A stretch of 46,203 bases of DNA from Elusimicrobia bacterium RIFOXYA2_FULL_50_26 (lineage in GTDB: Bacteria; Elusimicrobiota; Endomicrobiia; Endomicrobiales; XYA2-FULL-47-53), in assembly GCA_001800355.1 (NCBI GenBank), contig MGVF01000129.1:1-46203 (forward strand), read 5' to 3'. Position 1 is the stretch's first letter. The number at the start of each line of letters is the position of its first letter. The translations under genes were made by a program, and so were the position numbers. Below, piece by piece: positions 6,297 through 46,203 of the stretch. The notes under the pieces were generated by a model that saw only the letters and a list, made by a program, of their open reading frames with translations, had not been told where the DNA came from and ran no database searches.

Positions 6297-6311
6297 ACGT
6301 TTAGATTCATT

Positions 6312-9145: not shown

Positions 9146-9151
9146 CCGATT

Positions 9152-10255: not shown

Positions 10256-10292
10256 TGATTATCACAGGCGCCAGCATTACATGTGTGGTCTT

Positions 10293-10379
10293 CCCCTCAC
10301 CCTGCCCTCTCCCCGGAGGGTAGAGGGTTTTAGGTCTATAATTCCTCTCCCCGCCGGGGAGAGGATCAAGGTGAGGGGG
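10293..10379. repeat. R1 mosaic palindromic element, 2 hairpin units
   Basis: CCCCTCACCCTGCCCTCTCCCC-GGA-GGGTAGAGGG...CCTCTCCCC-GCC-GGGGAGAGGATCAAGGTGAGGGGG. The outer arms are reverse complements. Confidence 0.85.
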
Positions 10380-10403
10380 AGTTAATACGTTTTAATCAGA
10401 AAG

Positions 10404-14268: not shown

Positions 14269-14437
14269 CCATAAGTTCCTTCTCCCCGTCGGGGAGAAGG
14301 CCAGGATGAGGGGGAAGTCGCCGGGGACAGAACGTTCAACTCCCCCTCACCTTAATCCTCTCCCCGAAGGGGAGAGGAAATGAGTCAACGGCGATAATCT
14401 CAGGCTTATTTACAATGACAAACTCAGGATGAGGGGG
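14269..14437 (+). mobile_element. R1 bipartite element (MITE-like)
   Basis: CATAAGTTCCTTCTCCCC-GTC-GGGGAGAAGGCCAGGATGAGGGGG, a 27-nt spacer, then CCCCCTCACCTTAATCCTCTCCCC-GAA-GGGGAGAGGAAATGAG..GCGATAATC. Starts directly after the uppP stop. A solo CAGGATGAGGGGG sits at 14425-14437. Confidence 0.8.
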
Positions 14438-19739: not shown

Positions 19740-20385
19740 ATAGCAGGTTCTCCAGTAGTACGAAATATTCTTTCTTTATTACAATATCCGCTTTTTCAAG
19801 TTCCATGTATACGCGTACGGTGCTTGCCGCATACCCGTCGGTTATGCGTTCTTGTATGCCGTCCGATGCATTGCCGGAATTGAAATAATTAAATTCAAGC
19901 GTTTTTATGCGCTCGTTGGCGCCGCTAAACTGCATAATTTTTTCTTCTATTACTGTAACGGTATCTGTCCCGTCGCTTATTCTCCTGTGTTGCGCCCGTT
20001 CAACCAGTTGCCCGTTTTCAAGCCCGAAATAAGTCCAAATATCGTTGTCGTCCATCTCTGAGACAGTAGTGCCGGAATCTTTCGAAAAAAAAACTATGGA
20101 AGAGCTTCCGGATATGCTCGGCAAATCCCTGAAAACCTGCAAAAGATTGGATGATGAATTAGGCATGCCATCACCGGCCTTTCTAAATGCCACGGAAAGC
20201 GTTGACATTATGCGTGTTGCGTCGGTTTGCATCTCGCTTTCCGCCTGGGAACGCAACTGTGTTTCCATCAGGTACTGTTTTGAGCTTGCAATGGCCAACG
20301 CAAGTATGCCCACTATGGCAATGCTCATAATTGCTTCAGTCATGGTAAACCCGCCGCAGCGGGATTTGTGCAGTTTCATAATCAT
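19723..20385 (-). CDS. prepilin-type N-terminal cleavage/methylation domain protein (minor pilin/pseudopilin)
   Basis: MKLHKSRCGGFTMTEAIMSIAIVGILALA matches the G|FT(L/M)xE class III signal. Start is 20385 or 20379. Confidence 0.75.
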   Translation of the reverse strand: MIMKLHKSRCGGFTMTEAIMSIAIVGILALAIASSKQYLMETQLRSQAESEMQTDATRIMSTLSVAFRKAGDGMPNSSSNLLQVFRDLPSISGSSSIVFFSKDSGTTVSEMDDNDIWTYFGLENGQLVERAQHRRISDGTDTVTVIEEKIMQFSGANERIKTLEFNYFNSGNASDGIQERITDGYAASTVRVYMELEKADIVIKKEYFVLLENLLYGTNF

Positions 20386-23078
20386 TATTTCGTTGAGGCG
20401 CCGGTAGCCGTAACGTTTATCGCCACTATGTTGGAATATTCTATGTATCCGTTCATCGCCAGGAATGCGCGCAGCTGTACCGTGCCGCCTATATTGGACG
20501 AAGTTTTAAGTGTTGTGGTCAAACTGTTGCCCGTGGGAGAGATGGAGCAGATATCATTATCAGGTTGCAATTCTATACCGTCTTTGTCCAGGGCCTGCCA
20601 GTGCAGGTTGGCAGTGGTAATGCCGGGGCCTGAAATAGTGGCTGTAAATACCTGGGATGATGAAAATCCCATGGATATAGGGGTAGCCGCCGGAGCAATT
20701 GAAACAGTCATATTAGGTACAACTGTCCATGACCTCGTGTAAGTTGTGCTGTATGTCGGCGGATCAACATTTTTTGGATACTCGGCAATTCCTTTTATGC
20801 TAAATTTGGCTCCGAGTTTTTCTGTCGCAGTAAGCTCTACCCAGTATTCATTATTAGCGGGGCTGGTGGTAGGGTTAGTAACAATGCTGTGACTTGCCAG
20901 CCCGCCATCGGGATCCGTGGCAATGGACGACTCATCGTATTGAGTTGAGTCCAGCAGCACTCCATTCAGTTTCGTAGCTACACGCTCGTATATGGTTGTC
21001 CCGGCTTTTATAGTGCTTCCTCCGTTAATAAACGTAGTAAATGAATCGCCGCCTGTTATTTGCAAAAGCATGTTACCGATGGGCGATGTGTAAGTCGCGG
21101 AGAATGGAAGCGTCTGCGGGCCATACGGGTCGGCCCCTGCCAGCGGCGTATAGTCAAATTGCAGATAAGGCGTAATTGTCAGGTTAACCTGCACAGCGTT
21201 TTGCGGTGTGCAATAGTATGGGTATTCCGTTGCATCTGTTTCAATGGATGTTCCACGTTTCTCGCTTGTGAAGGATGGCTTCAGACATCCTATGGTTTCA
21301 ATGTCCGATAAGCCGCCTTCCGCATTTGAAATAGTGTATGTAACTTTTCTTGAGAGATTGGTTATACTTCCAACGGGCAAGTCAAGAGCTCTAAAGTAAA
21401 TACCATAAATGCCGCTGCCATCAACTCCCCATTCTTCATTGGATTTGATGAAACCTAGCCCGGGTAGATTAAAGTCAGAGGGATTTATACCGTGTCCTTT
21501 ATAATTCATCCAGATGCTTAATTGTGTGGTTGCTCCCCTTGCCAACGATATGTCTATACCATCGGTGGCGTTTAAACTCTGTTCCTCGTCTAAGATAGCT
21601 GTTCCGAACGTTCCTTTCCATGTGTTTGAATCCAAATTTTTTGTTACAGATACTGTCTGGTCCGCGGTTGCAACCCTGGTATTACTACCAATGGCGCTTG
21701 ATTCCTGTTTCGCCAGAATTCGCTGGTAGCCGAGTATTTGAATATTCAGCTTGATCTTACGTTCTGTGGCATTGGGGTCGGATGTCGAATTTACTGCAAT
21801 GTTATTAAATGTTATTATTCCGTTTATGTCTGTGCTGCCCCTGGCGAAATTTTCATCATTGCTGCCTATGCGTAAAACCTGGTTCGTCTCAAAGTCAAGA
21901 AGTTCTACGTGGGTATATTGTAGTGAATTGGAGCTGGTGTCCTTTACGTTTACGGTATAATTACCGTATTTTTTTGCTACAAGATTAAAGTTTACCGTTA
22001 ATACGGAATTTTTATCCAAAGTAATATCGTGGTCCGGCATTATGGAAAAATAATCGGTTTTTGATATTTTTTTAACATAATATCCGGCGTGGGTGTCATG
22101 GCTCGTAACAGGTATCGGTATATTGAATGTCGCATTTCCATCGGCGCCTGTAAACCCTGTGTAAGTTGCCGAATTGACAAGAGGCGCCGGAACCGTAGGC
22201 GGGACGCCTGCGCGGTAACTTATTTCCACGGTTACGCCTTGAATTGGTGCCATGCCTCCAAGAAGGTCTTGCACGTTAATATTGACAGTTGTAATGTATA
22301 CGGTTTGCATGGTGCCGTTTATGGTTAAGTCATTCTGGCCTGCAAGTGAAATATCCTCAATCTCGGCCGGCCAGTAACCTTCCCTGGTGGCTGTAATAGT
22401 GTATTTCTGTACCTGTGAAGCGATATAATTGTGGAACCCGTAATTGCCCGCGTCGTTAGTGTTGGTTTCACGCATAAAAGTTCCAGTTCCAATTGTTACT
22501 ACTGCTGTGGGTATGCCGCCTCCGCTGTCTTCATCCAAAAACGTCCCCGAAATATTTATGACGCCCATGGCTGAACGTATGTCAAGCGCGTCGGGCGAAG
22601 GTTTCTTTATGATGGTTTCAACGCTTATGGGTGAAAACCGTGAAGGAGAGATGCTATCGCGCAGGGTAACTTTAACTACGCGGTATTCTGCCAACGTATT
22701 GACATTTACGGTGCTTACCTCAACCTTTCGGAATAATTGCAGACGTTCTTCGTTTGCAGCGGATGCCCCTTCCGAGAAGAACGATCGTGGATAAGTTTCC
22801 AGCGTTTCAGCACCGTCGCCGACTACAAAATTAGTGAAACCTATGGGTTTTGGGCTGGGCGGCACGTTGCCTGCCGAATCGCGTTCCGGTATACGGGCTA
22901 TTTTCTGGAAGTTTTCAAGCTCATCGTTGGCAAACTGTAACGCCTGGTTTTTAACTTTAGAATGCATGAACGATTTGCTGAGCGACAAAAAACCCTGGAC
23001 AGCGCCAAGGATGACTATGGTGAAAACTGCAACTGCAATGACTACCTCGGTAAGTGTAAGTCCGCGTTGATTTTTCAT
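20385..23078 (-). CDS. giant pilin-like protein with CarboxypepD_reg-like beta-sandwich repeats
   Basis: MKNQRGLTLTEVVIAVAVFTIVILGA prepilin signal, with GGAG 8 nt upstream of ATG 23078 (track TTG 23093 less likely). Three repeats of type ISGTFLDEDSGGGIPTAVVTI...TNDAGNYGF, IQGVTVEISY...TGADGNATFNI and VNVKDTSS...STDINGIITFNNI. Confidence 0.75.
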   Translation of the reverse strand: MKNQRGLTLTEVVIAVAVFTIVILGAVQGFLSLSKSFMHSKVKNQALQFANDELENFQKIARIPERDSAGNVPPSPKPIGFTNFVVGDGAETLETYPRSFFSEGASAANEERLQLFRKVEVSTVNVNTLAEYRVVKVTLRDSISPSRFSPISVETIIKKPSPDALDIRSAMGVINISGTFLDEDSGGGIPTAVVTIGTGTFMRETNTNDAGNYGFHNYIASQVQKYTITATREGYWPAEIEDISLAGQNDLTINGTMQTVYITTVNINVQDLLGGMAPIQGVTVEISYRAGVPPTVPAPLVNSATYTGFTGADGNATFNIPIPVTSHDTHAGYYVKKISKTDYFSIMPDHDITLDKNSVLTVNFNLVAKKYGNYTVNVKDTSSNSLQYTHVELLDFETNQVLRIGSNDENFARGSTDINGIITFNNIAVNSTSDPNATERKIKLNIQILGYQRILAKQESSAIGSNTRVATADQTVSVTKNLDSNTWKGTFGTAILDEEQSLNATDGIDISLARGATTQLSIWMNYKGHGINPSDFNLPGLGFIKSNEEWGVDGSGIYGIYFRALDLPVGSITNLSRKVTYTISNAEGGLSDIETIGCLKPSFTSEKRGTSIETDATEYPYYCTPQNAVQVNLTITPYLQFDYTPLAGADPYGPQTLPFSATYTSPIGNMLLQITGGDSFTTFINGGSTIKAGTTIYERVATKLNGVLLDSTQYDESSIATDPDGGLASHSIVTNPTTSPANNEYWVELTATEKLGAKFSIKGIAEYPKNVDPPTYSTTYTRSWTVVPNMTVSIAPAATPISMGFSSSQVFTATISGPGITTANLHWQALDKDGIELQPDNDICSISPTGNSLTTTLKTSSNIGGTVQLRAFLAMNGYIEYSNIVAINVTATGASTK

Positions 23079-23146
23079 GGTAGTTTGCTCCAATCGGTAT
23101 TTGACGTAAAGAATTATGACTTATCGTAAGGTAGTGGGTGCGAATA

Positions 23147-37169: not shown

Positions 37170-37268
37170 AGTTGCTGTCATTGCGAGCGAAGCGAAGCAA
37201 TCTTGCTGTTTCGTATCAAAACGGCGAGATTGCTTCGTCGCGAAGGCTCCTCGCAATGACAAGCTTAT
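37170..37268 (+). repeat. R2b palindromic element
   Basis: TTGCTGTCATTGCGAGCGAAGCGAAGCAATCT..GTTTCGTATCAAAA..GAGATTGCTTCGTCGCGAAGGCTCCTCGCAATGAC. Near-identical to the copy at 38888-38986. No clear TSD. Confidence 0.8.
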
Positions 37269-37575: not shown

Positions 37576-38682
37576 ATGCAAGCCAGACTCCGGCAACGTC
37601 AAACGCCAGCAGCCCGCCAGAAAATGAAACTTGCGGCGCGTATTCACCTTGGCACGGTTATGGGATTGCCGGAGCGCGCATTCTCGGCCTTTGTAACGGA
37701 TGTCGAGCAAAGCCCCGCCTTTAAACATCTCGTTTCCTTCCGGCATAACAGTCAGAAACTTTTAACGTGGCGCCGGTTTTCCGGCACGTCGCTGGCCTGC
37801 TCTTTTGCGGGTTTAAATGAAAACCTGAATCACGATAAGTCCGGCTTCGACATAGAGACGCTGCTGCATTCACGGCCCGGCATAATCGAGCTTATCCTCT
37901 CCATAGGCCGCGAAAATTTTGAAAAATGGTTTCTTTATGACGAGGAAGCGCGTACGCCGGAAGAGGTTGCGGCGCTGTGCGACGTCCCGCTGGAAACCGT
38001 TGAAAAGATCAATGAATTCGTCAACGAAATAGACATATACGATCAGTTTCATGCATCTTCAAAATTAGTGGCATCCGGCGCCGGTAATTATTACAAGATA
38101 GCAGCCATAGAGCATGACGGCGCCGGAGGTTTTAATATAAGGTTCTACTCCCCCAGGTTTGCCCGCGGAAAATACATTATTCATTACGATCTTATTAACG
38201 AGCTTAAAAAACAGGGTTGTTTTACGGGCGGCGAATGGAAAAATATAGGCCGGCTGATCAACAAGCTTGAGCTTATAAACTCCCGCAAAACCACCATGTA
38301 CAGGATAATTTACGCGCTGATAAACAAGCAGAGGGAGTATTTCCTCAGTGGCGACGAAAAACGGCTGGCGGCCTTTACACAGAGAGAACTTGCGCGCGAT
38401 ATAGGCGTTGATGCCAGCCTCGTCTGCCGCGGGATATGCTCAAGGAGCATAGAAACGCCGCAGCACGTAGAAAAACCCCTGCATTTCTTCCTTCCCTCAC
38501 TGAAGGACATACGAAAAAATATCCTGCGCGAGCTTATGGCTCATGAGGAACGCCCGCTTAGCGACTCTGAAATAAGAAACATATTGAAGCAGAGATTTCA
38601 CTCCGACATTTCCCGCCGCAGTATTGCCTGCTGCCGTGCCGAGCTTGGCATCGAATCCTCCCAAAAAAGAAAAACCAGATAA
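37576..38682 (+). CDS. rpoN: short, divergent RNA polymerase sigma-54-like factor
   Basis: The C-terminal half runs parallel to the RpoN DNA-binding domain. [71 protein letters not shown] compares with E. coli ...[21 protein letters not shown]...[38 protein letters not shown]...[15 protein letters not shown] compares with PLSDSKLTSLL...ARRTVAKYRESLSI (RpoN box). Only 368 aa. Confidence 0.55.
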   Translation: [368 protein letters not shown]

Positions 38683-38718: not shown

Positions 38719-38821
38719 CGGTTTCAATCTGCGGCCTGCAACTTCGGAAAACGCGGGCTTACGTAGCTACCGCTACGCCGCGCCCACCTTTTCCTGCGTT
38801 TCGGCTCGCATATTGAAACCG
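38719..38821. repeat. R4 long imperfect palindrome (MITE-like or structured RNA)
   Basis: CGGTTTCAAT (38719-38728) pairs with ATTGAAACCG (38812-38821). Central stem CGTAGC-TACC-GCTACG at 38762-38777, exactly at the midpoint. Inner arms pair imperfectly. Confidence 0.5.
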
Positions 38822-38859
38822 AAAGACTTTATGTTCGAGTTTCGGGGGGGTGGCTTTTA

Positions 38860-38873
38860 GTAACATATGTTAC
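38860..38873. promoter_or_regulatory. perfect 14-bp palindrome, candidate activator site
   Basis: GTAACATATGTTAC. Shares the ACATA..TATGT half-sites with 39028-39040. Confidence 0.3.
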
Positions 38874-38887
38874 GCAAGAAATGCTGA

Positions 38888-38986
38888 AATTGCTGTCATT
38901 GCGAGCGAAGCGAAGCAATCTCGCTGTTTCGTATCAAAATGACGAGATTGCTTCGTCGCCAAGGCTCCTCGCAATGACATGCTGCG
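38888..38986 (+). repeat. R2b palindromic element
   Basis: Same orientation and sequence family as 37170-37268. Confidence 0.8.
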
Positions 38987-39027
38987 TAAAATCAATAACG
39001 AAGTGACTACATTAGTGTGCGGGTATG

Positions 39028-39040
39028 CACATAATATGTG
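39028..39040. promoter_or_regulatory. palindrome CACATA-A-TATGTG, candidate upstream activator site
   Basis: 6-bp perfect arms, centred about 50 bp upstream of the -24 element. Confidence 0.3.
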
Positions 39041-39082
39041 TTGCTATGTTGAAATTTTGGTGCGGTAGAGGGCGGCCATCGG

Positions 39083-39098
39083 TGGTACAATAATTGCA
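39083..39098 (+). promoter_or_regulatory. sigma-54 (-24/-12) type promoter
   Basis: TGGTAC-AATAA-TTGCA against consensus TGGCAC-N5-TTGCW. GG and GC are correctly spaced. AAGGAG at 39113-39118 and ATG at 39125. Confidence 0.55.
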
Positions 39099-39124
39099 CT
39101 TAAGGGAGGTGTAAGGAGCGCTTA

Positions 39125-40381
39125 ATGTCCAAGCGGGTTGTTATTACCGGCCTAGGAGTCATAGCGCCAAACGGCATAGGCCGGAAGGATTACTGGAACG
39201 CGGTTTTGATGGGGCGTTCCGGTATTACAACAATATCCAAGTTCGACACCTCCGGTTATGCCTCTAAGATTGCCGCAGAAGTCTCCGATTTTAACCCCAC
39301 CGACTACATCGAAAAAAAACAGGCCAGGCGTTTAAGCAGGTTCGCCCAGTTTTCGCTTGCAGCAAGCTGGATGGCCTCTCTGGATGCCGGCATAAATATC
39401 AAAAAAGAAAATCCATACAAAACCGGAATAGCGCTTGGCACGGCCGTCGGCGGCCTTGAGATAGCGGAAAAAGAGTGCGGCGCATATTTCGCGGGCAATC
39501 TGCACGGCTTAAATCCCCTTTCTTCCATGTCAATGAATCCCAACTCGGCTTTGGGCATAATAGCGGTTGATATGGGTATAAAAGGGCCGAATATGACCAT
39601 ATCCACGGGCTGCTCGGCCGGGCTTAGCGCAATCGGCTATTCCTATGATATAGTTTCAAACGGCCGCGCGGATGTAATGATCACCGGCGGCGCGGAGGCG
39701 CCCCTTTTTCCCGTAACGTTCGGTTCATTTTGCAGCGCGGAGGTGCTGACACGGCGCAACTCAGACCCCTCTCACGCAAGCCGGCCGTTTGACAGGTTCA
39801 GGGACGGCTACGTGCTTGGCGAAGGCGCCGGTATGCTTGTTGTGGAGTCGCTTGAACATGCGCTTGAACGCCACGCGGACATATATGCCGAAATCCTCGG
39901 CTACGGCGTTACAAATGACGGTTACAGCGTTTTCAAGATGGAGCCGGACGGCAAGGAAGCCGCAAAAACCATCGAGCTTGCATTATGCAACAGCGGGCTT
40001 TCGCCGTATGACGTAAGCTATATCAACGCGCACGGCAGCTCCTCGGTTGTTTCCGACAGGCGGGAAACCAACGCCATAAAACAGGTATTCGGCGAGCAGG
40101 CATACCATATCCCCATAAGCTCAATAAAATCAATGGTGGGACAGTCGCTGGCCGCGACCGCAAGCCTTCAGCTTGTTACCGCTGCGCTGGCGGTAAAATA
40201 CGACCGCATCCCGCCTACGATAAATTACGAGGAACCTGATCCGGCTTGTGATCTTGATTACGTGCCTAACGTTTGCCGCGACAACGTTGACGTCAAAGTT
40301 GTGCTGGTCAACTCCTTCGGCGCGGGCGGCAACAATATTTGTATGCTTATAGGCAAATACCGCAGCGAGGTTTTACATTGA
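39125..40381 (+). CDS. beta-ketoacyl synthase, FabF/KAS-II-like with atypical active site
   Basis: RVVITGLGVIAPNG, ISTGCSAGL (Cys163), INAHGSSS (His303), KSMVGQSLAATA (Gln340 where FabF has His), NSFGAGGNN (Ala400 where FabF has Phe). Confidence 0.85.
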   Translation: MSKRVVITGLGVIAPNGIGRKDYWNAVLMGRSGITTISKFDTSGYASKIAAEVSDFNPTDYIEKKQARRLSRFAQFSLAASWMASLDAGINIKKENPYKTGIALGTAVGGLEIAEKECGAYFAGNLHGLNPLSSMSMNPNSALGIIAVDMGIKGPNMTISTGCSAGLSAIGYSYDIVSNGRADVMITGGAEAPLFPVTFGSFCSAEVLTRRNSDPSHASRPFDRFRDGYVLGEGAGMLVVESLEHALERHADIYAEILGYGVTNDGYSVFKMEPDGKEAAKTIELALCNSGLSPYDVSYINAHGSSSVVSDRRETNAIKQVFGEQAYHIPISSIKSMVGQSLAATASLQLVTAALAVKYDRIPPTINYEEPDPACDLDYVPNVCRDNVDVKVVLVNSFGAGGNNICMLIGKYRSEVLH

Positions 40382-41724
40382 ACCTGAAAATACTACTGAT
40401 ACAGCCTCCGCTTAATCCGCACCTTATCGGGGTTGGCAGCGCTTATCTTACCGAGCCGCTGGCGCTTGAGATCATTGCGGCATCCGTCGCCGATCACGAG
40501 GTTCGGATACTGGACATGCGTACCGGCGATACGCTGGGTGCCGGCTTTTCAGGTTTTTGCCCGGATGTCGTAGGCATTACCGGCAATACGGCCGATGTTT
40601 ACCGGATGCTTGCGGTGCTTGCCGACGTTAAAAAAATTGACAACTCTATTTTAACCGTTGCCGGCGGCCATCACGCGACTATGGTGCCGCAGGATTTTAA
40701 CAAAGCGGCGGTAGACGTTATAGTTATCGGCGACGGTGAGGTTACGTTTCCGGAGCTTATCAGGGTTTACGCGCGCAAGGGGGATTTTTCGTCCGTGGCC
40801 GGGATAATGTTCCGCGACGATAACGGTGTATTTCAAGCCACTGCTCCCCGGCAGGGATGCGCCTGCCTTGACACACTGCCGTTGCCCATGCGCTCGCTGA
40901 CGGCCGGTTGCCGTAACCGCTATTTCCGCGGTTCATGGCGGCCGCTTGCGTCAATTATGACTTCCAGGGGATGCCCGTTCCGGTGCAGTTTCTGTGCTTT
41001 ATGGAAAATATCCGGCGGCCGTTACATGGTGCGCAGCCCTGAATCGGTGGTTGGCGAGCTTGAAACCATAGCCGAGGATTTTATTGATTTTGCCGAAGAT
41101 AATGCCTTGCATGACGTGCCGCGCGCGCGCAAAATAGCGGAATTGATAAGCGAGCGCGGCATAAAGAAAACATATAAATTGTACGCCCGTTCCGACACCG
41201 TTGTCCGCCATCCTTCGCTTATCGAGCAGTGGAAGCGCGTAGGCATGGAGCTGGTATTAATAGGTATGGAATCGTTCCGGGACAGCGAGTTGCGCGGGTT
41301 AAACAAGGCAAACAACGTGCGCAACAACGAAGAAGCCATACGCATACTGCACCGTAATGGCGTGGAGATCGCAGCCTATTTTATAATTCAACCGGATTAC
41401 ACTGAACAGGATTTTGACCAGTTGGCATCCTACGTCGCTTCGATGAACCTGACGCAACCGATATTTACGGTGTTAACCCCCCTTCCGGGAACAGACCTTT
41501 ACGAACAGAAATTTAAAGAGCTGACCACCCATAATTACGAGTTATACGATTTCGTGCATCCCGTGCTTCCCACGAAGCTGCCGCTTGAAAAGTTTTACGC
41601 CTGCCTGTTGCAGTTGTATTCCGCGTGTTATTCGCGCCCCGGGAGCAATAACCCGGCGGGTTCAAATGAAATTTTTGCAAAAATGCAGTCAAAGCTGATG
41701 AATGCCCACGCGGCCGGCTGTTGA
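40378..41724 (+). CDS. B12-binding-domain radical SAM protein (paralog 5)
   Basis: TTG 40378 overlaps the KAS stop (TTGA), with GAGG 7 nt upstream, and gives N-terminus (M)NLKILLIQPP like the paralogs; the track's TTG 40339 is the alternative. TVAGGHHATMVP and MTSRGCPFRCSFCALW. Confidence 0.8.
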   Translation: MNLKILLIQPPLNPHLIGVGSAYLTEPLALEIIAASVADHEVRILDMRTGDTLGAGFSGFCPDVVGITGNTADVYRMLAVLADVKKIDNSILTVAGGHHATMVPQDFNKAAVDVIVIGDGEVTFPELIRVYARKGDFSSVAGIMFRDDNGVFQATAPRQGCACLDTLPLPMRSLTAGCRNRYFRGSWRPLASIMTSRGCPFRCSFCALWKISGGRYMVRSPESVVGELETIAEDFIDFAEDNALHDVPRARKIAELISERGIKKTYKLYARSDTVVRHPSLIEQWKRVGMELVLIGMESFRDSELRGLNKANNVRNNEEAIRILHRNGVEIAAYFIIQPDYTEQDFDQLASYVASMNLTQPIFTVLTPLPGTDLYEQKFKELTTHNYELYDFVHPVLPTKLPLEKFYACLLQLYSACYSRPGSNNPAGSNEIFAKMQSKLMNAHAAGC

Positions 41725-41766
41725 AAAAATGCCGCCACACCATCTCCCTTACGTGGCTTGCGGCCA

Positions 41767-41898
41767 TACATAAATTCCTTCTCCCCCTCGGGGAGAAGGC
41801 CAGGATGAGGGGGAAGTCTTGGGGGACAGAACATTTAGCTCCCCCTCACCTTAATCCTCTCCCCGATGGGGAGAGGAAACGAGGCACCGACGATAATC
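41767..41898 (+). mobile_element. R1 bipartite element
   Basis: TACATAAATTCCTTCTCCCC...GGGGAGAGGAAACGAGGCACCGACGATAATC. About 91% identical to the copy at 42485. Confidence 0.85.
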
Positions 41899-41915
41899 AG
41901 GGGAAACGTGAAAAT

Positions 41916-42491
41916 ATGTATTTCTTCTATTTTCTTGTAATTATCAATGTGCTTACGCTTGCGGAGATGGCGTATTACCGGCGATGGAGAAAGAAGGGCA
42001 TTGTTTATTACCCCTGGCTTTTCCCGGTATGCATTATTTTTTATGTCGCGGTTAATGCAAGCGCGGCGGCGGAATTTTTGATGATCGAAAGAGTTATAAA
42101 TCCCGTGGCGGTGGGGCTGGGTTTTTGCTGCGCGGTTATCCGGTTTGCATTAAAATACGTTTCCGCGGCCGGGTTGGGGAAATACTGGGGCGTGCATATC
42201 GAAATACGCAAAGATCATGAGCTTATAAAAAGTGGGCCGTTTAAGATATTGCGCCACCCGGGTTATTTAAGCACCGTATTCGAAATGCTGACCATACCGC
42301 TTGTGGCCAATGCCTGGTATACGCTGGCCTGGGTTGTCGCGGGATATTCGGTATTATTGTACGTCAGGATACGACTGGAAGATAATGTGTTGCAAAAAGA
42401 GTTCGGCAGGGAGTTCGACGATTACCGTAAAAACACCGGAGCGCTTCTGCCGTCATTGCGCCTGACCCCGCCAACTTGCGATGATACATAA
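41916..42491 (+). CDS. isoprenylcysteine carboxyl methyltransferase (ICMT)/phospholipid methyltransferase family membrane protein
   Basis: Polytopic membrane protein with GPFKILRHPGYLSTVFEMLTIPL...RLEDNVLQKEFGREFDDYRKNTGALLP. The 65 codons upstream of ATG 41916 in track ORF 41721.. are repeat-encoded. Confidence 0.75.
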   Translation: MYFFYFLVIINVLTLAEMAYYRRWRKKGIVYYPWLFPVCIIFYVAVNASAAAEFLMIERVINPVAVGLGFCCAVIRFALKYVSAAGLGKYWGVHIEIRKDHELIKSGPFKILRHPGYLSTVFEMLTIPLVANAWYTLAWVVAGYSVLLYVRIRLEDNVLQKEFGREFDDYRKNTGALLPSLRLTPPTCDDT

Positions 42492-42648
42492 GTCCCTTCT
42501 CCCCGACGGGGAGAAGGCCAGGATGAGGGGGAAGTCTTCGGTAACAGAACATTTAGCTCCCCCTCACCTTAATCCTCTCCCCGATGGGGAGAGGAAACGA
42601 TTCGCCGACGATCAAGCCCCGCCGGGGAGAGGGTTAAGATGAGCGGGA
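42485..42648 (+). mobile_element. R1 bipartite element plus an extra hairpin unit
   Basis: TACATAAGTCCCTTCTCCCC...GGGGAGAGGAAACGATTCGCCGACGATCAAG, then CCCCGCCGGGGAGAGGGTTAAGATGAGCGGG. Its first bases provide the TAA stop (42489-42491) of the methyltransferase gene. Confidence 0.85.
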
Positions 42649-42688
42649 ATCGTGTTGTTTATCCCTGGTAAATAATTGGAGGATTTTA

Positions 42689-44362
42689 ATGTCAACTAAC
42701 AGTTTGCTGGTAAATTTTGCCGGATTTCCTTCGGCGCCGCGGATGCTTGTGCCGGATAACGGGCTTGCAAACCTTGCGGGCGCGCTGCTGGCCGCAGGCC
42801 ACAGGACGCGCATACTCGATTACGCCACGGCCGATACCGTCAAGGCGCTATACCCGTATGAATACAAAGATCGCCTGCAGGAAGTGTTGCAGCGCATAAT
42901 GCGCGATATAAAAGGCGGTTCCGCGCCCTCGCCGGCCGACATGGAGCAGTTTCATTCCATTGACTATGCCATAGAGAAGCGCAAAAGCGTAAACGTTGGA
43001 GACATAGCGCGCGATATTGCGGCATACATCAGGAATAACAACATTGATTTTGTAGGTTTCAAACTCTGGATGGGCGACGGCTTCGAGGGGTCAATGACGA
43101 TAGCGCGCGAGTTGAAGAAGAATTTTCCCGCCCTTCCTGTTTTTGCCGGCGGGCCGCACGTGGACTGGTTCGGCGAAAAGATACTTGAATGCGCCGATAT
43201 GTTCGACGTCCTTGTATGCGGAGAAGGCGAAGAGGTTATAGTGCAGCTTGCCGATTACGTTATGGGCAGGCGCGTGCTTGAGAATATACCCAACCTGCTT
43301 TACAGGAAAAGAGGCGTTGCCTGCTCAACGCCGCGCCGCGAAATCGCCGATCTTAACGCTCTTGCCGCGCCGGTTTATGACGAGGACGTTTACCCTGCCA
43401 TGAAGGGCAATAAGAAACTGAAATTCTATCTTACCGACGAAAGCCGCGGCTGCCCCAACAAGTGCGCATTCTGCCTGCATCCCGCAAAAAGCGGCGGTAA
43501 ATGGAGAATGAAATCGGCAACCGGGGTGGTAAATGAAATGGAGCGCATTATGTCGAAGCACGGCAGCAACGTGTTCCGTTTTGCCGGTTCCAACACGCCC
43601 ATGCCGCTTGCCCTTGAGATCGCCCGCGAGATAATCAGGCGCAACCTTAACGTGCGCTATATCGGGTTTGCGAATTCAGGCGTAGCTGTAAGCCGGGAGG
43701 AGTTTGCCCTGCTTAAGCGTTCCGGCTGTTTCGGTTTCTGGTTCGGCATAGAGTCGGGAAATCAGGAAATGCTTGATAAGGTTATGAACAAAAAAGTTAA
43801 GGTGGAGCAGCTGCGGGAAAAAATGAAGGCCTGCAAGGAGGCGGGCATTCACGTAACAGGCAGCGTTATAGTTCCTGCGCCGGGTGAAACCGGGCAATCC
43901 AAGCAGGATACGCTGCGCCTGCTTGCGGACGTTATGCCGGATTCGATTATAGCCGAGCCGCCCGTCGTGGTTCCCGGCACGGCCTGGGACACGGACGCGG
44001 AAAAGTATAACATCGTCATCCCCGACCGCAAAAAATATGTGGAACACGCCATGTTCTATAAGATGAAGCTGCTTTACCCGCCCAACCTTTTGCCGTCGTT
44101 CCCGTATCTTACCATTGACGGTAAATCCATGGATTCAATACTCCAGGAAGCCGGCGCGTTCAATCGCGACATTGAACGCCAGGGCATATTGACCCAGGTA
44201 ACAACCGATACCGCTCTGCTGGCGACATACGCCGGCACAACCGCGCGCGAGTTCAGGGACAACGCGCGGCAATGGTTTTTGTCCGGAGATTACGAGAAAA
44301 TAAACGGCATGGTTGCAACGATTAACGAAAATATAGAGAGAACAATGACAAATTTAGTATAA
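42689..44362 (+). CDS. B12-binding-domain radical SAM protein (paralog 6, long form)
   Basis: PVFAGGPHVDWF and TDESRGCPNKCAFCLHP (CX3CX2C). GGAGG RBS upstream. Confidence 0.8.
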   Translation: MSTNSLLVNFAGFPSAPRMLVPDNGLANLAGALLAAGHRTRILDYATADTVKALYPYEYKDRLQEVLQRIMRDIKGGSAPSPADMEQFHSIDYAIEKRKSVNVGDIARDIAAYIRNNNIDFVGFKLWMGDGFEGSMTIARELKKNFPALPVFAGGPHVDWFGEKILECADMFDVLVCGEGEEVIVQLADYVMGRRVLENIPNLLYRKRGVACSTPRREIADLNALAAPVYDEDVYPAMKGNKKLKFYLTDESRGCPNKCAFCLHPAKSGGKWRMKSATGVVNEMERIMSKHGSNVFRFAGSNTPMPLALEIAREIIRRNLNVRYIGFANSGVAVSREEFALLKRSGCFGFWFGIESGNQEMLDKVMNKKVKVEQLREKMKACKEAGIHVTGSVIVPAPGETGQSKQDTLRLLADVMPDSIIAEPPVVVPGTAWDTDAEKYNIVIPDRKKYVEHAMFYKMKLLYPPNLLPSFPYLTIDGKSMDSILQEAGAFNRDIERQGILTQVTTDTALLATYAGTTAREFRDNARQWFLSGDYEKINGMVATINENIERTMTNLV

Positions 44363-44369
44363 TGCGCGT

Positions 44370-46203
44370 ATGCATATTTATTATATTATTCTTGTTTTTG
44401 CATCGGCGTTTGGCGGTTATTTCGCTTACGGCCGGCCGCATTCCATTTCCTGGCTTGCCGCCGCCGTGACGAATATGTTCCTGGCCGGATTTGTTTACTC
44501 CAACGGCAGGCAGATAAAAATAAACAGGGCATTTGCGATATTGTGTTTCTGTGTCGCCTTGTGGACGTTGTCAGTTTTCGGGCTTTATATTATAACCGAT
44601 GAGCATGGCGCCGGCCACTGGATACGCTTTTTGCGCCCGGGGTATTTCTTCCTTGCGCCTTCCATTTTTTACTTCATGCTCGCGCTTGCAAAAAGCGATA
44701 CCGGCAAAAACATAAGGCTTGTCTATGTTTCCTTTACCATTGCCGCGGCGCTCAGCCTGCTTAATTATACGGGCTTTTTCGACGAAGGTATTGTAAGCCG
44801 CGGACTGTCGTATTTTCCGAAAATCGGCAAACGCTATATCGCAACTTTAGTCAACCTCGGGTTTTGGGGCGGCTGGGGTTTATTTTTTATTTTCAGGGCA
44901 TACGGCAGGCTTGCGTCCGTGCGGGAGCGCCAGCAGTTAAAGTACTTCTTTGCCGGCAGCAGTATAGCGTTGTTTTTGGGGCTTGTATCAAATACGCTTT
45001 TCGGGCTGGGACACAGTGTTTACCCGATGGGCGGTATCGGCATAATTCTTTACGCCCTGATAGTTTCCTATGCCATTATCAAGCACCAGTTGATGGATAT
45101 AGAAGTAATAATCCGCAAAGGTATAATCTATGCCGCACTTACGTTGTCGGTAATCGGCGTTTACGCAATAACTGTAGGTATTTCGGCCGGAATATTAGGC
45201 ACACGCGCAGGCAACTGGTTTACCAATGCTCTGGGCGGAATAGTCATAGCGCTCATTTTTTTGCCGTTGCGCAGCAGGATTCAACTGGCGGTAGACAAGC
45301 TGTTTTTCAAGGACAAGTACGATTATCATAAAACGCTGAGCGATTTCAGCCGGGACATCACTTCAATACTTGACCTTGAGCTTTTATTCCGGCTGCTTGT
45401 AAACAACGTGACGGAAACCATGCACATCTTCAGGGGGTGCATAATGATATACAACCCGGACAGGGCAACGTATGAGACCAGGTACTGTACCGGAAAAGAC
45501 GAGGAGATATTGCGTTTTGAACTCCGCGAGGCGGATGCGCCCGTGGAATGGCTCAATAAGCATGCATCCGCCCTTAACCTCGCGGCACACGAGGAGTCTT
45601 CGTTTCCGCAATTGCGGGACAGGGGCATAATGCTTGTTATTCCGCTTATAAACAAGAAGAGGTTGGTCGGCATGATGAATTTCGGAGCAAAACTTTCGGA
45701 GGATGCCTACACAAGCGAGGATATAGAGCTTCTTATGACGCTTTCCGGTCAGGCGGCCATAGCCATAGAAAACGATCAGCTTTCCGCGCGCATGAGAGAG
45801 CTTGAAAAAAGCCTGCACCAGGCGGATAAACTGTCAGCGCTTGGAACTTTTGCGTCGAGCCTCGCGCACGAGATAAAGAACCCGCTGTCTTCCATAAAAA
45901 CGTTCAGCCAGCTGATGGAGAAACGCTTTAACGATACCGTGTTCAGGGAAAAATTCAGCGCCATAGTCCCGCAGGAGATAGACAGGCTTGAGGCGGTGCT
46001 AAACCAGCTTGTGGATTTCGGCAAGGAATCCAGCCTGGATTTCGAACCGGTAAAAATCGGCAAGGTTATAGACGAGCTTTTCGAACTTGTTCAATATGAG
46101 GCGCTGCGGCGCAATATAAAGGTTATAAAGGAGTGCGGCGCTTCGCTTCCGCCGGTGGCTGCGGTAGAGCAACAGTTAAAGCAGGTGTTCATGAATCTTA
46201 TAC
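44370..46203 (+). CDS. sensor histidine kinase: polytopic N-terminal domain + GAF + HisKA (3' end outside window)
   Basis: Not in the ORF track because no stop is reached. Frame 3 is open from ATG 44370 to the window end. About 7 TM helices, a GAF-like block (IMIYNPD...LVIPLINKKRLVGMMNFG...DIELLMTLSGQAAIAIEN), and H-box LSALGTFASSLAHEIKNPLSSI. Confidence 0.85.
   Translation, partial: MHIYYIILVFASAFGGYFAYGRPHSISWLAAAVTNMFLAGFVYSNGRQIKINRAFAILCFCVALWTLSVFGLYIITDEHGAGHWIRFLRPGYFFLAPSIFYFMLALAKSDTGKNIRLVYVSFTIAAALSLLNYTGFFDEGIVSRGLSYFPKIGKRYIATLVNLGFWGGWGLFFIFRAYGRLASVRERQQLKYFFAGSSIALFLGLVSNTLFGLGHSVYPMGGIGIILYALIVSYAIIKHQLMDIEVIIRKGIIYAALTLSVIGVYAITVGISAGILGTRAGNWFTNALGGIVIALIFLPLRSRIQLAVDKLFFKDKYDYHKTLSDFSRDITSILDLELLFRLLVNNVTETMHIFRGCIMIYNPDRATYETRYCTGKDEEILRFELREADAPVEWLNKHASALNLAAHEESSFPQLRDRGIMLVIPLINKKRLVGMMNFGAKLSEDAYTSEDIELLMTLSGQAAIAIENDQLSARMRELEKSLHQADKLSALGTFASSLAHEIKNPLSSIKTFSQLMEKRFNDTVFREKFSAIVPQEIDRLEAVLNQLVDFGKESSLDFEPVKIGKVIDELFELVQYEALRRNIKVIKECGASLPPVAAVEQQLKQVFMNLI

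Follow-up and report, generated by a model that had tools for sequence, protein, structure and literature searches.

Which product would a cell make with a ketosynthase, two radical SAM enzymes and a membrane methyltransferase whose genes stand behind a sigma-54 type promoter and ahead of a sensor kinase gene? The question arises near the end of the window, by which we mean the whole stretch of DNA analysed (46,203 nt), where a sequence-only reading had proposed a regulated lipid-tailoring module. The features that bear on it, with the ketosynthase termed KAS, the radical SAM enzymes rSAM1 and rSAM2, and the methyltransferase ICMT, are the following:

37576-38682, forward strand: compact sigma-54-family sigma factor (368 aa; Sigma54_DBD)
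38719-38990, no strand assigned: palindromic repeat elements, where relatives have the activator gene
39026-39042, forward strand: possible activator-binding site, TGCACA-N5-TGTGTT (tentative; judged by eye)
39083-39098, forward strand: predicted sigma-54 type -24/-12 promoter, TGGTACAATAATTGCA, the sole window match to the consensus
39125-40381, forward strand: KAS (418 aa; PF00109 and PF02801)
40378-41724, forward strand: rSAM1 (448 aa; PF02310 and PF04055; cluster motif CPFRCSFC)
41757-41894, no strand assigned: 138-nt dispersed palindromic repeat, copy 1 (family D1), in the rSAM1-ICMT gap
41916-42491, forward strand: ICMT/PEMT-family polytopic membrane methyltransferase (191 aa; PF04140 at 68.4 bits, PF04191 at 38.1 bits)
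42475-42612, no strand assigned: 138-nt repeat, copy 2, in the ICMT-rSAM2 gap (91% identical to copy 1)
42689-44362, forward strand: rSAM2, a longer class B radical SAM enzyme (557 aa; PF02310 and PF04055; CPNKCAFC)
44370-46203, forward strand, cut by the window end: 7TM-GAF-HisKA sensor kinase of PrsK-like architecture (HisKA_7TM, GAF, HisKA)

The four biosynthetic genes lie exactly where the sequence-only reading had placed them, and independent gene callers returned the same four products on six public contigs. Its finer points were reproduced as well: the TTG start of rSAM1 overlaps the TGA stop of KAS (TTGA, 40378-40381), and the kinase starts at 44370, seven nt past the rSAM2 stop. Genes for ACP, KR, DH and ER were found neither in the scanned stretches of the window nor among the gene calls of the source contig, none recurred across 13 related loci, and these genes, together with a thioesterase gene, were absent from every locus, which agrees with the earlier statement that this is not a fab operon. 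The ~190-nt gaps flanking the ICMT gene were considered as regulatory spacers and rejected, each being a copy of the 138-nt repeat; relatives are free of this repeat and their genes abut. Copy 1 holds the inverted repeats I1/I2, copy 2 covers the last 17 nt of the ICMT gene, and the 21-nt core has three more near-matches in the window. Upstream, inverted repeat I3 spans 38719-38821, and the element starting at 38894 recurs exactly at 37176. The source contig also carries a PlsA/Ger-like ether-lipid gene ~5 kb downstream (PMC13159169).

Judged by profile scores and active-site residues, KAS is a divergent FabF-clade ketosynthase and not a normal FabF. Its score for the fabF equivalog, 454.9 bits, falls under the cutoff of 493.75, and alignment to FabF structures in the PDB reveals Cys163-His303-Gln340 in place of Cys-His-His, Ala400 in place of the Phe gate, and YSVFKMEP as gating loop 2. 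In FabF, the corresponding active-site residues are C163, H303, H340 and F400, loops 1 and 2 constitute the substrate gate, and a Phe-gate mutant of the S. pneumoniae enzyme is an efficient producer of triacetic acid lactone (PMC7138838). The clade signature was taken over 120 homologues, including the 74 closest relatives, all of which (74/74) combine Gln340 with a non-Phe residue at position 400; the same search retrieved 43 canonical FabF sequences with His340 and Phe400. Within the clade, loop 2 has changed from Y-H-x-T-A-P to Y-S-x-x-K/R-M/V-E-P, and T307 to S. The earlier label "FabF-like" is therefore right as to clade (PF00109/PF02801) but hides an altered catalytic triad and changes in both gating loops. 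On this residue pattern (a Cys-His-Gln triad and no Phe gate), the KAS clade is neofunctionalised, and this speaks against a role in simply elongating chains for the bulk of the membrane fatty acids. Two more distant cluster members, L008 and L011 (L-numbers denote the related loci compared), keep His340; the module can thus do without the triad change. Gln340 could equally signify a loss of decarboxylative condensation.

From sequence and modelled fold, rSAM1 is a cobalamin-type (class B) radical SAM enzyme. Its best NCBIfam match is HpnR (238.7 bits over ~390 aligned residues; cutoff 650), with BchE as the second-best profile, and its AF2 model (pLDDT 91) matches TsrM, AprD4, OxsB, MgmA, CysS and TokK at TMq 0.66-0.77; of these matches, the TokK and CysS structures contain pantetheinylated substrates. 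The label of one JGI homologue reads hopanoid C-3 methylase. The top NCBIfam matches of rSAM2, all far under their cutoffs, are ApyD (132 bits), PhpK (123) and HpnJ (120) and also include rSAM_ocin_1 RiPP methylases; HpnJ is the top match of a third rSAM paralogue found in relatives. Against the ladderane-type TIGR04072 (cutoff 360), rSAM1 and rSAM2 reach 69.5 and 107.7 bits. Membership of a clade with known non-lipid substrates would have spoken against a lipid role, and neither enzyme falls in one, rSAM1 being closest to HpnR and rSAM2 equidistant from ApyD, PhpK and HpnJ. rSAM2 is an accessory member of the module: its family comprises 487 representative clusters at E<=1e-30, orthologues with 39-50% identity occur in L007, L009, L095-L101, L103 and L125, and L175 has two 550-aa B12-rSAM genes at the rSAM2 position. 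Since class B enzymes are not all methylases (AprD4 is a dehydratase, OxsB performs ring contraction, and BchE is another case), C-methylation is proposed here, by analogy, just as the commonest class B outcome and is not demonstrated.

For the methyltransferase, the ICMT motif GPY..RHPAY...EE..L..FG..Y is kept in eight cluster orthologues, the SAM-binding motif is intact, and the second-best family is PEMT. An ICMT-like enzyme encoded next to a condensing enzyme gene, BpsB, O-methylates alkylpyrones and resorcinols, and the same activity has been proposed for DquB (PMC9827899).

Comparison with relatives bore out the expectation that the genes co-occur. Homologues of rSAM1 with at least ~48% identity and enough flanking sequence have the same KAS type adjacent and the activator and kinase around them, with two exceptions: L010 (49% identity), which has a lipid-linked context of DegV and FabH and no KAS, and the rearranged L103, where KAS lies 4.5 kb off on the other strand. 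Below ~48% identity this context is gone; few of more than 60 such loci have a KAS within 2 kb, and it is 28-38% identical to that of the window. The usual order is an optional compact sigma-54 gene, an NtrC-type activator, KAS, rSAM1, optionally ICMT and rSAM2/3, and the 7TM-GAF kinase. rSAM1 directly follows KAS in 11 of the 13 compared cluster loci; the two are separated by ICMT in L095 and L105 and by a gene of no known identity in L007. An all-against-all comparison of the 13 loci yielded as recurring families only the rSAMs, KAS, two-component proteins, ICMT, the sigma-54-like protein and an XRE regulator. A conserved module thus exists, as the sequence-only reading had it, but its core is activator, KAS, rSAM1 and kinase rather than that reading's four genes: ICMT is present in 9/13 loci, rSAM genes number from 1 to 4, and both ICMT and rSAM2 are dispensable in some loci. 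Other variable extras are ThiF and a 316-aa protein of no known identity. Some variant loci encode outer-membrane channels for hydrophobic compounds (FadL/TodX in L103, Phenol_MetA_deg in L174, an OMP beta-barrel in L009/L011). The near relative L125 offers another lipid-linked context, with a lipophile-type GT1 gene that separates rSAM2 from an rSAM1-like gene. The hosts are uncultured groundwater and sediment bacteria with the source names Elusimicrobia, Firestonebacteria, Nitrospirae and Omnitrophica.

Control of the operon was examined through its promoter, sigma factor, activator and kinase. Within the 46 kb of the window, TGGYAYN5TTGCW is matched only by TGGTACAATAATTGCA, with ~0.26 matches expected by chance and at least one match in 22 of 100 shuffles; by motif match alone this element is not significant. 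The promoter call is supported by its location, 27 nt ahead of the first gene, by equivalents in orthologous loci and by the neighbouring sigma-54 activator gene in relatives. A -24/-12 element precedes KAS in at least 10 of 11 inspected loci, equivalents having been located in L007, L008, L009, L011, L093-L098 and L100/L101 and just weak candidates in L105; the promoter noted earlier is present as placed and conserved. Upstream of these elements, TGCACA-N6-TGTGCA or TTGCACA-type repeats were recognized by eye, without statistics, in L007, L093, L095, L096, L098 and L100. The compact sigma factor gives Sigma54_DBD alone in Pfam (66 bits), with SRRSIACCR as RpoN box and an N-terminus that is Region-I-like in the family alignment. 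Its identity as a sigma-54 homologue is confirmed by its predicted fold, the AF2 model resembling sigma-54 chains of RNAP structures (probability 1.0, alignments of up to ~445 columns). In eight related loci it accompanies the cluster, lying upstream in L007, L093, L095, L096, L105 and L175 and following the kinase in L100/L101; it also occurs beside other sigma-54 activators, adjoining a different kinase-activator pair in L172 and L173.

A tblastn search found no activator gene anywhere in the window. In relatives, an NtrC/AtoC/PrsR-type activator lies directly upstream of the KAS operon (NCBIfam: AtoC 472, NtrC 433, PrsR 433, LuxO 384 bits). On the source contig the kinase reaches its full length of 713 aa, and a REC-only protein is encoded next; the kinase aligns to positions 2-679 of the 679 of PrsK (177 bits, cutoff 300), and the top NCBIfam match of its core is AtoS. 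Kinases of this 7TM-GAF type end the cluster in L007-L011, L096, L097, L100, L101, L105 and L175. L096 has an extra stand-alone 7TM module. Together, these features support the prediction of a sigma-54-dependent operon tied to a 7TM-GAF kinase. That kinase is predicted to be co-transcribed with the operon, and as the last operon gene it would let induction raise the operon's own sensor.

Our leading reading, tentative and somewhat short of an even chance, is that the region is a sigma-54-dependent, two-component-controlled operon for a specialised fatty-acid-derived lipophilic product rather than for bulk fatty-acid synthesis; the gene set probably makes a C- and O-methylated lipid-like compound, so far uncharacterised, whose nature and role we infer. 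KAS would draw on the acyl-ACP of the cell, take over its acyl chain at Cys163 and condense this chain with a malonyl unit, while His303 and the Gln340 amide would stabilise the enolate, like Asn in Cys-His-Asn enzymes. With the Phe400 gate gone and loop 2 rewritten, KAS should accept chains that are branched or beta-keto, or a looser order of reaction, and its product may be a beta-keto or poly-beta-keto (pyrone-type) acyl intermediate, not that of a normal FAS cycle. rSAM1, whose gene is translationally coupled to that of KAS, would then alkylate, most likely methylate, an unactivated carbon of the pantetheine-tethered intermediate, and rSAM2 and the further paralogues of relatives could add more C-methyl groups. 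Once the lipid is released, the ICMT-type membrane enzyme would O-methylate it at a carboxyl or an enol oxygen. The product may stay in the envelope or, in some variant loci, exit via the hydrophobic-compound channels, and the 7TM kinase would sense the membrane state or the product itself and drive the promoter through the activator. Several points weigh against this account: the cluster has no ACP, acyltransferase or thioesterase to account for loading or release, class B chemistry is broader than methylation, Gln340 may mean that decarboxylative condensation is lost, L008 and L011 keep His340, ICMT and rSAM2 are missing from some loci, and the window has no adjacent activator gene. A signalling circuit would moreover explain a kinase within a biosynthetic operon no less well than an envelope-lipid response does.

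Bulk membrane lipid tailoring, the view of the sequence-only reading, would have a special elongating KAS and B12 radical SAM enzymes introduce methyl branches into phospholipid, ether-lipid or membrane-spanning chains, with ICMT methylating a head group and the kinase sensing a membrane property. The kinase's seven transmembrane helices, HpnR (a membrane-lipid methylase) as the closest rSAM1 profile, PEMT as second-best methyltransferase family and the ether-lipid gene downstream all suit it, and autoregulated operons that join a lipid-modifying enzyme to its own two-component system exist (pmrCAB). It is nevertheless unlikely: clade-wide loss of the FabF gate and of one catalytic His is unexpected for an enzyme feeding the normal FAS cycle, and inner-membrane lipid modification needs no outer-membrane channels for hydrophobic solutes. 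The patchy distribution across phyla and variable make-up (1-4 rSAMs, with or without ICMT, ThiF and the 316-aa protein) give the look of an accessory pathway, and together with the channels they resemble a specialised-metabolite or specialised-lipid pathway more closely. What survives of the earlier proposal is the conserved, regulated, non-fab module; its chain coupling or mid-chain methylation of membrane lipids is pure inference. Distinctly unlikely, too, is a self-contained cell-cell signalling system, in which a methylated lipophilic autoinducer, the product of KAS, the rSAM(s) and ICMT, crosses the outer-membrane channels both ways and is sensed by the 7TM-GAF kinase, which acts through the NtrC-type regulator on the sigma-54 promoter in positive feedback. 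CqsS-LuxO signalling pairs a membrane kinase with a sigma-54 activator, LuxO is among the activator matches, and a methyltransferase makes the 3-hydroxy fatty acid methyl ester on which the Ralstonia Phc system relies. The kinase is last in the biosynthetic operon in nearly all loci with the activator just upstream, and the L096 module and the FadL/TodX and Phenol_MetA_deg channels would fit; yet release and sensing of the product are purely proposed, PrsK, which has no known ligand, shows the same 7TM-GAF architecture, up to four B12 radical SAM enzymes are heavy machinery for a signal, and in the window genome no activator gene adjoins the operon.

It is improbable that the system takes up a hydrophobic compound from outside to modify it or break it down, with FadL-type import, AtoS/AtoC-like sensing and transformation by the KAS-like enzyme and rSAMs. 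Kinase core and activator do match best AtoS and AtoC, regulators of short-chain fatty acid catabolism, but at scores that are far under cutoff and reflect generic domains; an altered KAS malonyl pocket could mean a non-decarboxylative reaction, but the examined cluster loci have no CoA ligase, dehydrogenase, hydratase or thiolase genes, and FadL/TodX and Phenol_MetA_deg proteins occur in a minority of loci only. Isoprenoid or hopanoid-type methylation or rearrangement, by HpnR/HpnJ-like chemistry with an isoprenoid-linked ICMT and an incidental KAS, appears very improbable: the HpnR and HpnJ matches of rSAM1, rSAM2 and the third paralogue, and the single JGI label (n=1), are offset by scores two- to five-fold under family cutoffs and by the lack of squalene, hopene cyclase or prenyl-transferase genes in every cluster locus as annotated or scanned, and KAS, the most constant partner of rSAM1, is left unexplained. 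KAS is not accounted for either by C-methylation of a small precursor peptide in RiPP maturation, which we regard as hardly credible. ApyD and the rSAM_ocin_1 methylases appear among the top rSAM2 matches only far under cutoff, compact loci such as L008 have no room for a precursor gene, no small ORF recurs in the 13 loci, and peptidase, transporter and recognition-element protein are absent.

No characterised system of this composition was found in the literature searched or in a 2026 review of lipid-modifying radical SAM enzymes, as the sequence-only reading had supposed. Among described lipid pathways, a single proposal (PMC13459092) combines ketosynthases of the FabF type with a cobalamin radical SAM enzyme that works on the acyl chain during or after its growth, a function likewise only proposed. 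That pathway involves a dedicated ACP, FabZ and a phytoene-desaturase-like enzyme, all missing here; its description has no ICMT, sigma-54 activator or 7TM kinase, and the present hosts are not anammox bacteria. E. coli and S. pneumoniae FabF (KAS II) share the fold of KAS, which is ~45-50% identical to solved FabF structures and keeps Cys163, His303, Lys335, Asp265 and Asn404; the KAS clade differs in His340 to Gln, Phe400 to Ala/Gln/Leu/Met and the replaced H-x-T-A-P of loop 2, and the KAS gene lies outside any fab operon under predicted sigma-54 regulation. HpnR, with HpnP, has the B12-domain and radical SAM core of rSAM1 and acts on a membrane lipid, whereas rSAM1 has no hopanoid gene context and a ketosynthase as constant partner. 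TokK/ThnK and CysS share the rSAM1 fold (TMq 0.66-0.71) and provide precedent for sequential C-methylation on a pantetheinyl-linked substrate, as the coupling to KAS suggests here, but their sequence similarity to rSAM1 is marginal (E 5e-11 to 4e-7), they carry extra C-terminal domains, and their own substrates are a carbapenam and a benzoate ether of antibiotic pathways.

On the regulatory side, the PEP-CTERM/exosortase-linked PrsK/PrsR pair likewise combines a kinase of 7TM-GAF-HisKA-HATPase architecture, to which the present kinase aligns end to end, with a sigma-54-dependent output; scores for kinase (177 vs 300) and activator (433 vs 503) both fall under cutoff, no exosortase or PEP-CTERM genes lie nearby, and the genes controlled here are biosynthetic enzymes. 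The BpsA/BpsB, SrsA/SrsB and DquA/DquB loci differ in their condensing enzyme, a type III PKS (Cys-His-Asn, CHS fold) as opposed to the FabF-fold Cys-His-Gln enzyme, and have neither radical SAM enzymes nor dedicated two-component or sigma-54 control. Like the present locus, they place a condensing enzyme with a fatty-acyl starter beside an ICMT-family membrane methyltransferase, which in those systems O-methylates a lipophilic product, and their products change the properties of the envelope (PMC9827899).

A ketosynthase gene (KAS), two genes for B12-domain radical SAM proteins (rSAM1, 448 aa, and rSAM2, 557 aa), a gene for a membrane methyltransferase of the isoprenylcysteine-type family (ICMT), and a kinase gene follow one another to the end of the window, with the following Pfam assignments:

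39125-40381, KAS, N- and C-terminal ketoacyl-synt domains (PF00109/PF02801)
40378-41724, rSAM1, B12-binding (PF02310) and Radical_SAM (PF04055) domains, above cutoffs
41916-42491, ICMT, PF04140 at 68.4 bits (cutoff 24) and PEMT at 38 bits
42689-44362, rSAM2, PF02310 and PF04055, above cutoffs
44370 to beyond the window end, kinase, HisKA_7TM, GAF, and HisKA domains

The coordinates of the first four genes, as proposed in the sequence-only reading, were matched base for base by the ORF listing, and its domain assignments for KAS, the rSAMs, the methyltransferase, and the kinase were upheld by the profile search. The TTG start of rSAM1 overlaps the KAS stop codon as TTGA, and a 7-nt spacer separates the rSAM2 stop from the kinase start. 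An identical copy of the rSAM2 protein is present on nine public contigs. On the longest of them (90.5 kb, assembly GCA_001800525.1) the kinase has 713 aa, and the next genes encode a REC-only protein, then an H+-pyrophosphatase, and then a large protein resembling PlsA/Ger. The closest source-named homologues of the cluster proteins belong mostly to Elusimicrobia MAGs.

Relatives of the window proteins were located by tblastn in one-genome-per-species contigs and metagenomes. While rSAM1 homologues number in the thousands, those with at least about 48% identity and enough flank lie, with two exceptions, in the same cluster; under ~48%, KAS, ICMT, and kinase vanish and the neighborhoods become heterogeneous. 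Near this boundary, rSAM1 of locus L010 (49% identity) adjoins DegV and FabH without KAS, and in locus L125 a GT1 glycosyltransferase gene sits between rSAM2 and an rSAM1-like gene. In the wider rSAM1-like family (29-47% identity), neighborhoods of 80 GTDB loci and some 65 metagenome loci were surveyed; a Pfam search of 115 proteins from the flanks revealed no recurrent partner, with only TPR, ABC, TetR, and Ddl appearing at 3-4 each. A search from the KAS side recovered the same cluster in two loci (L175 and L174) with source host names Elusimicrobia and Nitrospirae.

All-against-all comparison of 13 loci gave the following recurrence, in which the four-gene unit originally proposed held for KAS and the rSAMs and proved variable in ICMT and in the number of B12 rSAM genes (1 to 4 per locus):

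rSAMs, 13/13 loci
KAS, 13/13 loci
two-component proteins, 13/13 loci
ICMT, 9/13 loci
sigma-54-like protein, 7/13 loci
XRE regulator, 5/13 loci

The position of ICMT also varies, before or after rSAM1. Individual loci add an extra ThiF-like protein (L175) or outer-membrane proteins, namely an OMP beta-barrel in L009 and L011, FadL/TodX in L103, and Phenol_MetA_deg in L174; the OMP of L009/L011 and a 316-aa protein of L007 returned no informative family match. The module is widespread among anaerobes from aquifers and sediments, all uncultured, to which the sources give the host names Elusimicrobia, Firestonebacteria, Omnitrophica, and Nitrospirae. In L096 and L008 the cluster is followed by genes for PilZ-domain proteins, and in two farther KAS homologues (P0238 and P0244) a PilZ domain is fused to the N-terminus. 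Three versions of the cluster have IS200/Y1-type transposase genes within or next to them (L007 10365-11048, L093 12969-13973, and L008 16123-16689), which would fit mobility or REP-associated activity around the module.

Solved FabF structures align with KAS end to end, and it passes the broader subfamily model PRK07314 (446.9 against a cutoff of 387) and falls under the cutoff of the fabF equivalog TIGR03150 (454.9 versus 493.75 bits). A signature was derived from an alignment of the 120 best homologues, among them the 74 closest relatives and 43 canonical FabF proteins. Cys163 and His303 are kept in the window KAS and in all 74 relatives. Position 340 is Gln in the window protein and in 74/74 relatives, and His in 43/43 canonical FabF. 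Position 400, Phe in the 43 canonical proteins, is Gln, Leu, Met, Ala, or Val in the 74, which also share the changes T307 to Ser and E349 to Gln and a loop 2 motif Y-S-x-x-K/R-M/V-E-P that replaces Y-H-x-T-A-P. An amide at position 340 is reminiscent of KAS III and type III PKS enzymes, whose triad is Cys-His-Asn; a literature search returned no description of a Cys-His-Gln ketosynthase. Farther cluster KAS proteins (L008 and L011) keep His340 but display the same loop 2 change and Phe400 loss. In FabF, the active-site residues are Cys163, His303, His340, and Phe400, and loop 1 (GFGG) and loop 2 (265-275) form a coordinated gate for acyl-ACP entry (PMC7138838). A Phe-gate mutant of Streptococcus pneumoniae FabF efficiently produces triacetic acid lactone, suggesting lost control of reaction order (PMC7138838). 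The window KAS has a GAGG gate loop and a YSVFKMEP loop 2 and retains Asp265 and Asn404; it lacks the GFGG gate loop with Phe400 and the loop 2 (265-275) with His268, Thr270, and the Pro-Pro pivot, as these elements are defined in PMC7138838. Judged by sequence, it is a ketosynthase subclass for which we found no description rather than an ordinary FabF, and this Cys-His-Gln, gate-less clade offers a natural experiment on the FabF model of gating and decarboxylation. Genes for ACP, KR, DH, or ER were absent from the scanned window stretches and from the called genes of the source contig, and neither these nor a thioesterase recurred across the 13 loci, in agreement with the earlier view that this is not a fab operon. 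A 76-aa ORF after KAS in L174 was considered as an ACP and rejected because its sequence has no ACP features.

Both radical SAM proteins pair an N-terminal B12-binding Rossmann domain with a radical SAM core containing a CxxxCxxC cluster motif (CPFRCSFC and CPNKCAFC), placing them by domain content in class B, the cobalamin-dependent radical SAM enzymes. An AF2 model of rSAM1 (pLDDT 91) matched TsrM, AprD4, OxsB, MgmA, CysS, and TokK at TMq 0.66-0.77, and the modeled fold is that of class B. AprD4 and OxsB share this fold yet are not methylases; cobalamin binding and methyl transfer are the predicted functions of rSAM1 and rSAM2. TokK and CysS were crystallized in the presence of pantetheinylated substrates, which makes them helpful precedents for an enzyme that is coupled to KAS. 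Profile matches to named families were distant. The best profile for rSAM1 was HpnR (TIGR04367; 238.7 bits versus a cutoff of 650), with BchE second; rSAM2, whose family of ~550-aa proteins comprises 487 representative clusters at E<=1e-30, scored 62.4 bits against HpnR and about 120-130 bits, far under cutoffs, against its top profiles ApyD, PhpK, and HpnJ. The ladderane-type model TIGR04072 gave 69.5 and 107.7 bits for rSAM1 and rSAM2, respectively, versus a cutoff of 360. Despite HpnR leading the list for rSAM1, a hopanoid or isoprenoid pathway was rejected as the main reading because the scores lie far under cutoffs and the gene context is absent, no hpn or shc genes being found in any annotated or scanned cluster locus.

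Across eight cluster orthologues, ICMT displays an invariant SAM-binding motif (RHPxY ... EE ... FG ... Y). It scores under the cutoff of the model of true isoprenylcysteine O-methyltransferases (NF040696; 82.4 bits versus 160), and family membership does not single out a substrate. BpsB, an ICMT-like enzyme whose gene adjoins that of a condensing enzyme with fatty-acyl starters, adds O-methyl groups to alkylpyrones and resorcinols, and DquB has been proposed to act likewise (PMC9827899).

Three features precede KAS:

37576-38682, short sigma-54 homologue, 440 nt upstream, Pfam match in the last 135 residues only
39026-39042, candidate TGCACA-N5-TGTGTT site, recognized by eye from its likeness to repeats upstream of relatives' promoters
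39083-39098, sigma-54-type promoter TGGTACAATAATTGCA, the sole match in the window to the sigma-54 consensus pattern

Since chance would produce 0.26 such matches in the window, a single promoter match is weak by itself, and support comes instead from comparison with related loci. A TGGCAC-N5-TTGC-type element lies between the upstream gene and KAS in at least 10 of 11 related loci inspected, L105 offering weak candidates only; the sigma-54 promoter first proposed from the window thus corresponds to a GG-N10-GC element conserved at the operon start in orthologues. Most inspected loci encode a REC-AAA+-HTH_8 activator of the NtrC/AtoC/PrsR type directly upstream. Neither the window nor the 21.7 kb of source-contig sequence examined contains an activator gene, and the 440-nt space at the position that the activator takes in relatives holds palindromic repeats. 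Against the PrsK equivalog, the kinase scored 177.4 (under 300), and the relatives' activator scored 432.6 against PrsR (under 502.6); exosortase genes were absent from the called genes of annotated loci.

The short sigma-54 homologue belongs to a family of 26 clusters (347-372 aa) with a Gln/Leu-rich N-terminus resembling sigma-54 Region I, and its AF2 model matched sigma-54 chains in RNA polymerase structures along the length of the protein, over at most ~445 columns, with probability 1.0. Such homologues accompany the cluster in eight loci. A role for this Sigma54_DBD protein as a regulator dedicated to the operon was rejected, as members of the family also adjoin a kinase-activator pair that is unrelated and neighbors Hdr-like genes; from its sequence and model, the 37576-38682 product is more likely the lineage's short sigma-54, tending to adjoin activators, than a module-specific factor. 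The RpoN box of the window protein is SRRSIACCR, and proteins of this small family, about 350-370 aa, occur in several contexts beside activators of sigma-54. Promoter and KAS are ~320 nt apart in the L096 group, and the leader between them (about 3700-4000 in L096) contains a small ORF whose C-terminus, as read by eye, resembles a Fis-type HTH (…RRTVKLLGIDSETLSNY); the same locus encodes a stand-alone 218-aa HisKA_7TM-only protein (10333-10989) just before the full 7TM-GAF kinase. The leader and gaps were also considered as sites of a structured RNA such as a cobalamin riboswitch, a reading rejected since Rfam returned nothing at E<=1 except a spurious lncRNA match on the repeat around ICMT described next.

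The gaps around ICMT are occupied by two copies of a dispersed palindromic repeat:

41757-41894 and 42475-42612, dispersed palindromic repeat of about 138 nt, one copy on either side of ICMT

This repeat is REP- or MITE-like with nested GGGGAGA/TCTCCCC hairpins, is missing from orthologous loci, and has near-matches to its 21-nt core at 14301, 25142 (-), and 35584. As copies of a dispersed repeat specific to the window genome, the gaps were rejected as regulatory elements or precursor genes; the 138-nt repeat may act as an internal attenuator or RNA-stability element. Another family of repeats, which starts with TGTCATTGCGAGCGAAGCGAAGCAATC and folds into a long hairpin, occurs at 37176-37202 and 38894-38920 (element to about 38990), one copy sitting in the gap where relatives have the activator gene.

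A polysaccharide-type locus at 551-13219 (+) of the window contains four B12-binding radical SAM genes (1462-2865, 3691-5136, 6312-7706, and 7703-9145) alternating with glycosyltransferase genes of families GT2 and GT4; genes for a WecA-like transferase and a dehydratase of the Polysacc_synt_2 family come next. It is unusual for a glycan cluster to have four class B enzymes, and C-methylated sugars may be the reason. On the source contig, a gene for a 1410-aa BcrAD_BadFG and DUF2229 protein of the PlsA/Ger type lies after the H+-pyrophosphatase, some 5 kb beyond the end of the window (17317-20305 in L001 and 11249-15481 in L003). Proteins of this type make ether lipids or plasmalogens in other anaerobes (PMC13159169), and the window organism probably makes ether lipids. 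Of three adjacent genes at 17883-23093 (-), two carry prepilin-type N-terminal methylation motifs, one of them being 902 aa with a CarboxypepD_reg domain, and the third, of 618 aa, has no family match; the three may form a locus for a large pseudopilin or one associated with a type IV filament.

The findings fit a single unit, a biosynthetic operon controlled by sigma-54 and a two-component system. The chemistry would start from a fatty-acyl thioester, which would undergo an unusual condensation by KAS, elaboration via radical C-alkylation, and O-methylation in the membrane. The patchy, accessory-like distribution, the variable number of tailoring enzymes, and the recurring outer-membrane channels for hydrophobic solutes favor a specialized lipophilic product over remodeling of bulk phospholipid acyl chains. 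An envelope lipid is the product that we rank first, as a tentative choice falling short of an even chance, and the bulk-membrane tailoring disfavored by these three features ranks second and appears unlikely. An autoinducer circuit, ranked third, is more doubtful still. Less probable again is the specific proposal of a new chemical-signaling circuit, in which the Cys-His-Gln KAS, the cobalamin rSAMs, and the ICMT-type enzyme would build a C-/O-methylated lipophilic autoinducer, the co-transcribed 7TM-GAF kinase would be its receptor, and the NtrC-type activator and unusually short sigma-54 would close a positive feedback loop; if true, the 7TM sensor domain of the PrsK type would thereby gain its first ligand class.

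The remaining weight is shared by three alternatives, a catabolic, an isoprenoid, and a RiPP reading. A RiPP cluster was rejected, as the loci have no conserved small ORF and, where compact, no room for one, and an anti-phage defense system was likewise dismissed, PADLOC returning only a generic 34-bit radical SAM match. As a new compound, the product could serve as a biomarker lipid or be a signal, and the linkage of a PrsK-like 7TM sensor to concrete biosynthetic genes makes the sensor input experimentally approachable.

The earlier statement that no characterized system has this composition is borne out by a 2026 review of lipid-modifying radical SAM enzymes, which covers Tes, Mss, Gms, GrsA/B, Gmm, Cds, HpnH/J/P/R, Jaw5, and unproven ladderane candidates and contains nothing matching; a literature search likewise found no paper combining these gene families. 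Mss and Tes are membrane-spanning lipid synthases, with Tmari_0825 and Tes as confirmed radical SAM proteins, and Mss homologues have been published for Elusimicrobia. A partnership of a FabF-fold ketosynthase with a cobalamin radical SAM enzyme has so far been proposed, and not proven, for ladderane lipids (PMC13459092). If the chemistry outlined for the window cluster is correct, it would be the first defined pathway in which these two enzymes act directly on an acyl intermediate. The ladderane proposal is close in kind, with FabF homologues and a B12 rSAM in both, but ladderane clusters carry dedicated ACP, FabZ, and desaturase-like genes, partners that the window cluster does not have. BpsAB-type phenolic-lipid loci are also close, and the adjacency of a condensing enzyme and an ICMT-like methyltransferase is found in the cluster as well; the difference is that the BpsAB-type condensing enzyme has a CHS fold with Cys-His-Asn, whereas the window KAS has the FabF fold (PF00109/PF02801). 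The module draws on the same classes of parts as FabF, HpnR, the ladderane rSAM family, PrsK/PrsR, and type III PKS loci, although it falls outside the definition of all five, and we would rate it as a putative specialized pathway to a fatty acid-derived lipid with radical SAM tailoring, including a ketosynthase subclass for which our literature search returned no description.
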